Notes: generated by a model not told the origin, from the letters alone. 60,685 bases of DNA from Candidatus Omnitrophota bacterium (GCA_041653055.1 JBAZGD010000004.1:1-60685), one strand, 5' to 3'; positions 41,550 through 43,274 are shown, numbered from the stretch's first letter. Program-made: numbers and translations.

Positions 41550-41564
41550 AATTTTCTAACTTTT

Positions 41565-41636
41565 GGGCCCATAGCTCAGTGGTAGAGCAGGTGACTCATA
41601 ATCACTTGGTCGGAGGTCCGAATCCTTCTGGGCCCA
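41565..41636 (+). tRNA. tRNA-Ile2 (anticodon CAT, lysidine type; elongator Met not excluded); CCA not encoded
   Basis: Acceptor GGGCCCA/TGGGCCC, D-arm AGCTCAGTGGTAGAGC, anticodon arm GGTGA-CTCATAA-TCACT closely resembling ileX-type tRNAs. T-loop TCCGAAT. Confidence 0.9.
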
Positions 41637-41644
41637 ATAAATCA

Positions 41645-41718
41645 GGGCATTTAGCTCAGTTGGTTAGAGCGCTACATTCACATTGTAGAGGCCAGAGGTC
41701 CGAGTCCTCTAATGCCCA
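41645..41718 (+). tRNA. tRNA-Val (anticodon CAC); CCA not encoded
   Basis: Acceptor GGGCATT/AATGCCC, anticodon arm CTACA-TTCACAT-TGTAG, T-arm AGAGG-TCCGAGT-CCTCT. Confidence 0.92.
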
Positions 41719-41731
41719 TTAAAAAAAGGAG

Positions 41732-42463
41732 ATGATTTTGCCCGGGACTAAGCTTAAAGCGCAGCTAGGAAGTTTAATCAAGCTTCAGGAATTAGATACT
41801 CAGATATATAAATTACGGCTGGAGAAGTCTTTAAAGCCGCAGGAGATAAAGATCCTTGAGGATTCCTTTGAGGCTAAGAAAGCGCATTTGGCGCAACTGG
41901 AGAAAAGCCTGCTTGATCTTGCCAAGCAAAAGAAAGACAGGGAGCTGGAGCTGGGCTCTAAAGAGGAGGCAACCGTTAAACTGCAGGGACAGTTGTATTC
42001 TCTAAAGACAAATAAAGAATACCAGACGATGCTCCAGCAGATACAAGACTCTAAAGCTGACGTCTCTGTTATAGAAGATAAAATATTGGCGTTGTTGGTA
42101 GAGACGGATAAGGTTAAGGCGCAGGTGGAAGAGGAGAAGTCTAGGGTTAAAGAAGAAGAAAAGGTGTTTTTATCAGAGAAGGCAGTGGTAGAATTAAGGG
42201 TCAAGGAGATAGAGGAGCGCTTGAGCCAGTTAGATGCGCAAAGAAAACAGGCGCTGGTGGATATCGAACCCAAAATTCTGTCTCAATACGAGAGGATACT
42301 TGCAAGCCGCGACGGGCTGGCTATAGTCACGGTGAAGGGAAGTTCCTGCGGTGGGTGCAATATGTTTGTGCCTCCCCAGGTAATCAATTTAATTAAGATG
42401 TATGAACGCATCATTACCTGCGAAACCTGCAACCGGATGCTTTACATAAATGAGGCTGATTAA
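41732..42463 (+). CDS. Coiled-coil protein with C-terminal C4 zinc ribbon (zf-RING_7; CT398/HP0958-like)
   Basis: LQELDTQI, long coiled coil with KTNKEY, CGGC...CETCNRMLY. Confidence 0.92.
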   Translation: MILPGTKLKAQLGSLIKLQELDTQIYKLRLEKSLKPQEIKILEDSFEAKKAHLAQLEKSLLDLAKQKKDRELELGSKEEATVKLQGQLYSLKTNKEYQTMLQQIQDSKADVSVIEDKILALLVETDKVKAQVEEEKSRVKEEEKVFLSEKAVVELRVKEIEERLSQLDAQRKQALVDIEPKILSQYERILASRDGLAIVTVKGSSCGGCNMFVPPQVINLIKMYERIITCETCNRMLYINEAD

Positions 42464-42478
42464 GCTCAAGCATTCTTA

Positions 42479-42958
42479 ATGAAGGAATTAGAGATATATA
42501 TTGACGGGGCCTCTAAGGGAAATCCCGGGCCAAGCGGGATAGGGGTGGTAATCTGCCATTGCGGATGCGTTATAAAGAATGTATCCGCTTATATTGGTAA
42601 TGCTACGAATAATGTCGCCGAGTACACGGCGCTGATTTACGCTTTAAAAGAGGCCATGGGCTTGAAAGCGGATTATTTAATTGTAAAGACGGACAGCCAG
42701 CTTCTTGCCCGCCAGTTAAATAAGGTATATAAGGTCAGGAATGCAAATATATCGGGGCTTTATAACCAGTCTCTGGGGCTTTTGGGTTTATTCAAGAAGT
42801 TTTCAATTCACAGTATCCCGCGCGAGGAAAATAAGGGTGCCGATAAATTAGCAACCCTGGCGGTAAATAGGTTCTTTCGTAAAAATGAGCAGGCGGAATG
42901 TGGCTGCTCGCCGGGTAAACCGGCGGGAGGAAAGTCCGGGCTCCAAAGGAAGGCGTAA
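42479..42958 (+). CDS. rnhA: Ribonuclease HI (3' end overlaps rnpB)
   Basis: IYIDGASKGNPG, TNNVAEY, TDSQL, REENK-x-AD-x-LA. Confidence 0.93.
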   Translation: MKELEIYIDGASKGNPGPSGIGVVICHCGCVIKNVSAYIGNATNNVAEYTALIYALKEAMGLKADYLIVKTDSQLLARQLNKVYKVRNANISGLYNQSLGLLGLFKKFSIHSIPREENKGADKLATLAVNRFFRKNEQAECGCSPGKPAGGKSGLQRKA

Positions 42959-43232
42959 CAGGCTAATACCTGTCCCCGTTGGTATTTAACGGGAGGATAA
43001 GAGCCACAGAGACGATTAAAGGTGAAACGAGGCAATCTCTGCGCGGAGCAAGGCGAATAGGAGATGAGTCTGCCGCAAGGCAGCCAGGTGCTTTTCCGGC
43101 GCCTTATCAATCTCGGGTGTTAAGCTGCTAGAATCCCGGGGCCTTTAAGGCCCCGGGATCTCAGAGGAATAGCCACTTTAGATGCGTTTATACTCGCAAT
43201 CGAGACAGAACCCGGCTTATTTTGCCTGCTCA
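42886..43232 (+). ncRNA. rnpB: RNase P RNA
   Basis: P1 TGAGCAGGC/GCCTGCTCA; P4 halves GAGGAAAGTCC (42927-42937) and ACAGAACCCGGCTTAT (43205-43220); GGAGCAAG, CGGG...GCTGCT. Confidence 0.97.
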
Positions 43233-43274
43233 CTTAAATGATAATACAACGATACAAAAAAAGGGAGGATCAAG

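Follow-up and report, generated by a model that had tools for sequence, protein, structure and literature searches.

The rnpB locus

We scanned the window, i.e. the whole 60,685-nt stretch JBAZGD010000004.1 of a Candidatus Omnitrophota MAG (GCA_041653055.1), with the Rfam covariance models, and RF00010 (RNaseP_bact_a) matched with 151.4 bits (gathering score 100, E 8e-47). The match is rnpB, the gene of RNase P RNA, which lies behind two tRNA genes and two protein-coding genes:

41564-41718, plus strand: tRNA-Met(CAU) and tRNA-Val(CAC), both with C at position 55 (T-loops UCCGAAU and UCCGAGU)
41732-42463: Zn-ribbon/CT398-like coiled-coil gene, upstream of the RNase HI-like ORF
42479-42958, plus strand: RNase HI-like ORF (PF13456, 5e-22; PF00075, 3e-13)
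42886-43236, plus strand: rnpB, RNase P RNA, 351 nt (RF00010, model positions 1-367)

The flanks of rnpB are syntenic, with the tRNA-Met, tRNA-Val, Zn-ribbon and RNase HI genes upstream and yebC and ruvC downstream, and the gene is present in a single copy in its own genome (G000; 0.96 Mb in 41 contigs, 86.6% complete). RF00010 was retained over RF00011 after clan competition, whether the whole RNA or only the specificity domain (S-domain) was scanned. The score of the S-domain scan is dominated by P7-P9 and leaves the type-B likeness of the J11/12-J12/13 module untouched, and for this reason we also scanned for that module across phyla and typed the matches with Rfam (see below). Throughout, family and genus labels (f1, f2 and so on) are anonymised GTDB ranks.

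The last ~24 codons of the RNase HI-like ORF run through P1-P7 in the 5' part of rnpB. An RNase HI-like C-terminus is located directly upstream of rnpB in G412 and G169 as well, and so the rnpB RNA may be released by cleavage from the 3' end of the RNase HI mRNA. A scan for promoters and terminators gave counts not above those of shuffled sequence.

An A-type catalytic domain

A preliminary description of this DNA had called the catalytic domain (C-domain) A-type-like, with a long P18 closed by a TTTAA loop, an extra GCAA-capped hairpin in the P16/17 region, and a P19. All of these elements were recovered at the following positions, where the sub-clade means the P12-less relatives within the window's genus that are described below:

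42932-42940, plus strand: P4 5' strand AAGUCCGGG, catalytic core; partner at 43211-43218; invariant in 6 of 6 sub-clade RNAs
42948-42951, plus strand: P6 5' strand GGAA in J5/7, pairing with UUCC in the P17 loop (43094-43097)
43061-43065 and 43110-43114, plus strand: P16, paired
43070-43083, plus strand: P16.1, extra CUGCC-GCAA-GGCAG hairpin between P16 and P17
43087-43103, plus strand: P17, with covariation
43115-43118, plus strand: GGGU after P16, containing the GGU motif (43116-43118), a putative binder of the tRNA CCA
43133-43143 and 43149-43159, plus strand: P18, 11 bp, loop UUUAA
43181-43201, plus strand: P19 hairpin (GAUGCG / CGC-A-AUC), 6 of 6 pairs canonical

All assigned helices are canonical in the window RNA, and the P4 landmark GGAAAGUCC is present in the Rfam alignment. 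With the P4 core, P6, P16 and P17 in place, the C-domain is that of type A, of which the latter three helices are the hallmarks (PMC7191817). The assignment is strengthened by P6 itself (63-66/209-212 in RNA numbering), where positions 65-210 and 66-209 alternate among GC, AT and TA pairs in 32 relatives. P5.1 is absent, since the 8 nt between P5 and P7 leave no room for it.

Of the peripheral elements, P16.1 is kept throughout the sub-clade with a loop that is not conserved, P18 differs wholly in sequence between sub-clade members with its pairing maintained, and the P19 pairs are invariant within the sub-clade and variable in the 32-sequence alignment. In type A RNAs, the GNRA tetraloop of P18 docks in P8. 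L18 of the window RNA, UUUAA, is not a GNRA loop; GUAA, GAAA or GCAA stands at this place in relatives that do not belong to the sub-clade.

A specificity domain without P12, P13 and P14

In the alignment to RF00010, the 81 consensus positions from J11/12 to the P11 3' strand, which hold P12, P13 and P14, correspond to only 15 nt in the window RNA, and neither a P12 nor a P13/P14 was placed among them. The reduced S-domain consists of the following parts:

42953-42995, plus strand: P7 5' strand, P8 hairpin (42958-42973) and P9 hairpin (42974-42995), from the Rfam alignment and P7/P8/P9 covariation
42996-43005, plus strand: P10/P11 5' strand, GA-UAA-GAGCC (P11 5' GAGCC at 43001-43005), without P10.1 insertion
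43006-43015, plus strand: J11/12 (CR-II), ACAGAGACGA; invariant in the sub-clade and identical in type-B Mollicutes
43016-43020, plus strand: 5-nt linker UUAAA (TTAAA in DNA) in the place of P12, where relatives have hairpins of 16-83 nt
43021-43030, plus strand: J12/13 (CR-III), RNA GGUGAAACGA, DNA GGTGAAACGA, leading directly to the P11 3' strand
43031-43048, plus strand: 3' strands of P11 (GGC-AA-UC), P10 (UC), P7 (UGCGC) and P5 (GGAG), from the Rfam alignment and pair counts

It had been proposed from the sequence that the two conserved segments are joined by TTAAA alone, which makes a P12 stem impossible, and that no room is left for P13/P14. Both points hold: the linker is 5 nt long, and P13/P14 are absent because J12/13 runs directly into the P11 3' strand, where GGC-AA-TCTC (43031-43039) closes P11 and P10. 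A vestigial P12 of 2-3 bp in GA-UUAAA-GG was considered and rejected, as no stable pairing is possible there and RNAfold forms none. P10.1 was also looked for in the window RNA, and only UAA lies between P10 and P11. The P9 loop is UUGGUAUUUAA, which is not GNRA. The window RNA therefore lacks all three of the helices P12, P13 and P14 that mark a type A S-domain, and it is of the P12-less kind, in which CR-II and CR-III are kept and a join of a few nucleotides replaces P12.

Distribution of the reduced forms in Omnitrophota

The order of the window's genome has two S-domain forms. The full A-type form, ACAGAAAAUA - P12 - GGUGAAAAGGU - P13 - P14 - GGUAAACCCC, was found in G040, G027, G028, G036, G012, G018 and G039, and the reduced form reads ACAGAGACGA(GU) - P12 - (G)GUGAAACG(N)GGYAAUCUCU, with no P13/P14. 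We searched the phylum for the P13/P14-less signature TGAAACG(N)GGYAATCTC, and it turned out that 229 of 401 Omnitrophota genomes (152 of 281 genera, other classes included) contain it, which is a lower bound since the pattern is exact; the reversed pattern, used as control, matched one genome. The P13/P14-less junction is thus the majority form in Omnitrophota and not special to the window genome.

Both S-domain types occur under one family label, namely in f1 (G012 and G018 against the rest) and in f2 (G039 against G025 and G034), and the full A-type (L002-L008) and type-B-like (L009-L030) rnpB genes occupy one and the same syntenic site, behind the tRNA-Met/Val pair. This mixture within families implies either repeated conversion with convergent CR-II/CR-III or an exchange of rnpB alleles.

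The pattern ACAGAGACGA-N{0,13}-TGAAACG detected P12-less RNAs in seven MAGs of the window's genus (G000, G001, G003, G004, G005, G007 and G010), in all of which the linker is TTAAA or TAAAA and the junction has the form ACAGAGACGA-T(T/A)AAA-GGTGAAACG. Outside this genus but within its class, three further genera have P12-less RNAs (G311 of f33, G169 of f21 and G412 of f38), with linkers of GAAA/GAGA plus U/A. The matches of ACAGAGACGAN{0,13}TGAAACG in G402, G403 and G074 were dismissed as chance, for their flanks read as coding DNA. Like the signature search, all of these pattern searches for loss of P12, P13 or P14 give lower bounds. Besides, three public records (CAZIUK010000001.1, CAZPGX010000026.1 and CAYXYY010000054.1), which correspond to G001, G311 and G169 and share their rnpB junctions, bear the submitter label "uncultured Planctomycetales/Planctomycetia".

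Where P12 is present, its length varies widely: 22 nt in G009, 79 nt in G002 and 78 nt in G008 within the window's genus, and 16-83 nt in the rest of the order, the shortest being that of G013 (16 nt). The P12 of G008 (L074) holds a tandem duplication, in which a ~23-nt unit, AGCUUUUAAAGGCUAAACGAAAU, stands twice. The P12-less genomes are the closest relatives of the window, because their tRNA-Met/Val pair is 91-99% identical to that of the window, compared with at most 86% in the P12-bearing members of the genus, and this pattern fits what would be a single P12 loss in the sub-clade. Across the phylum, P12 loss appears to be rare and recurrent, with at least four occurrences, always on the type-B CR-II/CR-III module.

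P12 is not the only element that differs between the sub-clade and its neighbours. At the position of P10.1, between P10 and P11, G009, G002, G008 and G011 keep one or two additional hairpins that are missing from the sub-clade, and the same four genomes keep a GNRA L18, which the sub-clade lacks. Hairpins at the P10.1 position were seen in L073 (G002), L074 (G008), L013 (G011), L023 (G022), L024 (G038), L018 (G019) and L014 (G025), for instance as UCCGCCAC-AAGGC-GUGGCGGA followed by CCCGCCAA-GUAUUU-UUGGCGGG, and they give those A-type RNAs a type-C-like look.

As the window comes from a MAG in 41 contigs with 86.6% completeness, and some relatives (G008) have repeats inside P12, the missing helices might be suspected to result from assembly or binning, through a collapsed repeat or a chimeric contig. 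The P12-less junction, however, recurs identically in seven MAGs, several of which come from separate GenBank submissions, the flanks of rnpB are syntenic on both sides, and the contigs are long (60.7 kb for the window, 646 kb for the G001 copy). An artefact is therefore extremely improbable.

Comparison with known classes of RNase P RNA

To place the module among bacteria, we scanned one genome each from 185,579 species for CACAGNGACGA-N{0,10}-GTGRAACG-N{0,2}-GG and obtained 108 matches, 52 of which have the P4 motif upstream. The other 56 were set aside as chance; among them is the G007 copy, which is cut by a contig end. About 40 of the 52 P4-bearing matches have Mollicutes-type labels or RNAs (Mycoplasmopsis agalactiae, M. 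bovis, M. felis, M. iners, M. gallinarum and others, as well as Acholeplasmatales and Spiroplasma MAGs), and the eight Mollicutes-type RNAs that we typed score as RF00011 (class B) with 168-246 bits and lengths of 277-303 nt. One Mollicutes-type match is labelled Muribaculaceae and yet scores as RF00011. The scan also contains 4 P12-less records that are CPR or CPR-like, including L156 (Curtissbacteria) and L181 (Patescibacteria). Two MAGs labelled Gammaproteobacteria, L147 and L153, carry CPR-like RNase P RNAs.

The S-core of the window RNA, CACAGAGACGA-linker-GUGAAACG(N)GG, agrees in every letter with the P12-less type-B module of mycoplasmas. For example, gugcCACAGAGACGA-GAAUA-GUGAAACGGGuaaac from Mollicutes and gagcCACAGAGACGA-UUAAAG-GUGAAACGAGGcaauc from the window have identical module letters. 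With this exact match to RNAs that score as RF00011, the view of the window RNA as a hybrid of an A-type C-domain and a type-B-like S-core is supported. The preliminary description had spoken of an unusual hybrid architecture: the hybrid stands, and "unusual" does not hold for the phylum, given the P13/P14-less junction in 229 of 401 Omnitrophota.

Type B RNAs have P5.1, P10.1 and P15.1 and lack P6, P16 and P17 (PMC7191817), and the window RNA does not have this helix set; what it shares with type B is the lack of P13/P14 and CR-II/CR-III of the form ACAGNGACGA ... GUGRAACG. Type C combines P6, P16 and P17 with P10.1 and P15.2, and the window RNA has no P10.1.

Bacterial RNase P RNAs without P12 have been described in Mycoplasma fermentans and in CPR bacteria (PMC8172020). 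In the M. fermentans group (Mycoplasmopsis and relatives) we find the same arrangement as in the window, with CACAGAGACGA, a linker of 4-6 nt and GUGAAACG(N)GG that continues without a break into the P11 3' strand, no P12, P13 or P14, and small genomes. The difference is in the rest of the molecule: those RNAs score as RF00011 and have the type-B helix set by family definition (PMC7191817), whereas the window RNA scores as RF00010, has P6, P16, P17 and P18, and is without P10.1. The RNAs of the CPR group Microgenomatia lack P12, P13, P14 and P18 (Lui et al. 2021, PMC8172020). These are likewise A-like bacterial RNAs of ultra-small uncultured bacteria in which the whole P12-P14 block is gone, and the CR-II/CR-III sequences of the CPR matches L156 and L181 equal those of the window. 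They belong to another phylum, however, and many CPR RNAs fall below the Rfam cut-off, whereas the window RNA is well above it and retains a long P18; besides, its loss of P12 can be traced to a single sub-clade within a genus that also has P12-bearing sister lineages.

Type C RNAs (Thermomicrobium roseum and Sphaerobacter; PMC7191817) also join an A-type C-domain (P6, P16, P17) to type-B features of the S-domain, and show that type-B traits have also arisen in bacteria other than Firmicutes. Unlike the window RNA, which has neither P10.1 nor P12, they have P10.1 and P15.2 and keep P12 (PMC7191817), so the relatives with P10.1-like hairpins (G002, G008, G011, G022 and G038) are nearer to type C than the window RNA is. 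Type T of Thermoproteaceae (PMC7191817) is similar in its drastically reduced specificity domain, but it is without P11, J11/12, J12/13 and CR-II/CR-III (PMC7191817), the very strands that are the best-conserved part of the window RNA.

Complete P12 loss is hence of a kind already known from mycoplasmas and CPR, and Omnitrophota is the third bacterial lineage in which it occurs. In the literature that could be searched, no paper joins Omnitrophota with RNase P.

RnpA and HARP in the order

RnpA is, to our knowledge, the supposedly universal protein subunit of bacterial RNase P, and the canonical holoenzyme's rnpA usually stands in the order rpmH-rnpA-yidD. Searching for RnpA (PF00825) at E <= 0.01, we found none in the window genome and none in the 41 genomes of the order, with 10 of 10 bacterial positive controls detected. 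Phylum-wide, 100 of 121 sampled genomes have RnpA (E 1e-27 to 3.5e-7), and the ten f1 genomes of that sample, the window's included, have none. A profile built from nine Omnitrophota RnpA sequences, divergent 90-94-aa forms included, gave no credible match in the order either.

The gene order agrees with these results. In RnpA-positive Omnitrophota, rnpA immediately precedes yidD, and rpmH, in the loci from which it could be recovered, lies further upstream; in the order, all five loci that we read (L084 of G001, L080 of G010, L082 of G015, L079 of G031 and L083 of G028) have rpmH followed directly by yidD, overlapping or abutting. In the window's own MAG the rpmH locus is unassembled, and tblastn with approximate E. 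coli and B. subtilis queries found neither RnpA nor L34 there, so that for this genome the absence of RnpA is deduced from close relatives, among them G001 and G010. The arrangement rpmH-yidD-yidC has otherwise been described in Aquifex, which lost both rnpA and rnpB (PMC10941002), whereas rnpB is retained in the window's order, where 36 of 41 genomes have it over the Rfam cut-off.

HARP (PF08745, PIN_5) was over the cut-off in none of the 41 genomes of the order, and weak partial matches (E ~0.005) in ORFs of 284-350 aa were rejected as HARP. The two kinds of loss do not go together: P12-less RNAs occur with RnpA in G311 and G169 and without it in G412 and the window's sub-clade, and since G311 and G169 are P12-less and yet RnpA-bearing, P12 loss is not tied to RnpA loss. 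We give even chances to the reading that the whole order and some neighbouring families have an RNA-based RNase P without an RnpA homologue or HARP, in which the RNA works alone or with an unrelated protein.

Selection on the window RNA

We aligned RNAs with MAFFT and counted pairs in Python. Identity among the six complete P12-less sub-clade RNAs is only 69-96%; 95.2% of their pair cells (518 of 544) are canonical, and both sides have changed in a compensatory way in 32 of 92 pairs. P18, P9, P3 and P16.1 have been rebuilt with different sequences among the six, and the 50-nt stretch of P10, CR-II, linker, CR-III and P11 shows at most 2 differences. In the wider alignment of 32 reduced-type RNAs (29 from the order and 3 from other P12-less lineages), covariation was found in P1, P2, P3, P6, P7, P8, P9 and P17. 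The window rnpB is under purifying selection.

These data bear on another explanation, in which rnpB is a decaying relic under relaxed selection, the processing of tRNA 5' ends having passed to HARP or another nuclease. Consistent with it are the missing RnpA in 41 of 41 genomes of the order with its closed rpmH-yidD slot, and the joint disappearance of several tertiary-contact elements (P12, the P10.1-like hairpins and the GNRA L18). A relic, however, does not agree with compensatory changes in 32 of 92 pairs or with invariant catalytic and S cores at 69-96% identity, nor with an rnpB above the Rfam cut-off in 36 of 41 genomes; HARP itself is over the cut-off in none of the 41, and the P12-less G311 and G169 possess RnpA. 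We consider decay improbable. Because of the 95.2% canonical pairs, the compensatory changes and the near-invariant core, the RNA is a selected one and not a relic, and the window rnpB very probably encodes the functional catalytic RNA of RNase P, with an A-type C-domain, a reduced S-domain and trimmed peripheral struts.

The C55 tRNAs

U55 in the T-loop of tRNA is near-universal, and the tRNA-Met and tRNA-Val genes about 1.2 kb upstream of rnpB both have C55. The preliminary description had suggested that the minimal S-domain co-evolved with such tRNAs, i.e. that P12 loss adapts the elbow site to C55 T-loops, and the proximity of the two genes as well as the restriction of C55 to f1, the family that holds the P12-less sub-clade, are in line with the idea. 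In the own genome, however, ARAGORN found U55 in 37 of 42 tRNA genes and C55 in only 4, namely Met-CAU, Val-CAC and two copies of Cys-GCA (G000 C5:46-117 and C20:19019-19090). A second tRNA-Met(CAU) gene (G000 C16:12825-12899), with the T-loop UUUAAAU, has U56 where C56 is expected and falls outside the U55/C55 pattern.

The states of position 55 in the orthologous pair (Met/Val) are as follows:

P12-less G000, G004 and G003: C/C
P12-less G005 and G010: U/C
P12-less G001 and G007: U/U
P12-bearing G002 and G011: C/C
P12-bearing G009, G013, G021, G022 and G019: C/U
G018, with a full A-type S-domain: U/C
families f2-f10 (P13/P14 absent from many), wherever both genes were recovered: U/U throughout

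C55 in this sample is confined to f1, and the position flips between U and C in the orthologues of close relatives. P12 loss and C55 are uncoupled in both directions: the P12-less G001 and G007 have U55 in both tRNAs, the P12-bearing G002 and G011 have C55 in both, G013, G021, G022, G019 and G009 have C55 in tRNA-Met, and even G018 with its full A-type S-domain has C55 in tRNA-Val. As orthologue states mix in this way, C55 is a sporadic polymorphism of a few tRNAs in f1, decoupled from the RNA. The proximity to rnpB is conserved synteny, because the pair is located upstream of rnpB in most of the order, whatever the base at position 55. Judged from the genes compared, the tRNA-Met/Val pair is not functionally tied to P12 loss, and co-evolution with C55 is as good as refuted.

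Proposed working and history of the RNA

In the solved structures of bacterial RNase P, CR-II and CR-III form interleaved T-loop motifs on which the tRNA elbow, the stacked D-loop and T-loop, sits. By analogy with these structures from other bacteria, the window RNA would work with a catalytic half made of P1-P5, the P6 pseudoknot, P15-P18, P19 and the putative CCA-binding GGU, and with an S-domain reduced to P7-P11 plus J11/12 (CR-II) and J12/13 (CR-III), whose CR-II/CR-III would dock the tRNA elbow. Since the elbow-binding strands are retained, pre-tRNA would be measured as normal. P12 would then be a peripheral helix that sprouts between CR-II and CR-III, and P13/P14, or P10.1 in type B, would merely buttress the CR-II/CR-III module.

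The background of the phylum is that most members already lack P13/P14 and have the type-B CR-II/CR-III module. To judge from its variability, P12 would have no obligatory docking partner in that background; its length ranges from 16 to 83 nt, it tolerates repeat insertions, and at least four deletions of it have occurred in the phylum, from which we infer that it may be dispensable. The sub-clade lost P12 along with the P10.1-like hairpins and the GNRA tetraloop that caps P18. Its genomes are 0.9-1.3 Mb in size, and those of most of the family 1.5-1.9 Mb. All this looks like a step-wise reductive trimming of tertiary struts in a small-genome lineage and not like an adaptation to particular substrates.

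In conclusion, the close relatives of the window form a natural deletion series, from the full A-type S-domain through P13/P14-less forms with a long P12 and with a short P12 to no P12 at all, which allows a biochemical comparison of what these helices contribute. The combination of an A-type C-domain and a B-type S-core throughout the phylum suggests that the classes A, B and C are points on a continuum, and that the hybrid class may be common. Besides, with rnpA apparently absent, this clade is suited to asking whether a bacterial RNase P RNA works in cells without the canonical protein; if the RNase P of this order does dispense with both RnpA and HARP, that of the sub-clade would be the most reduced RNA-based one known from bacteria, and the first to lack RnpA.
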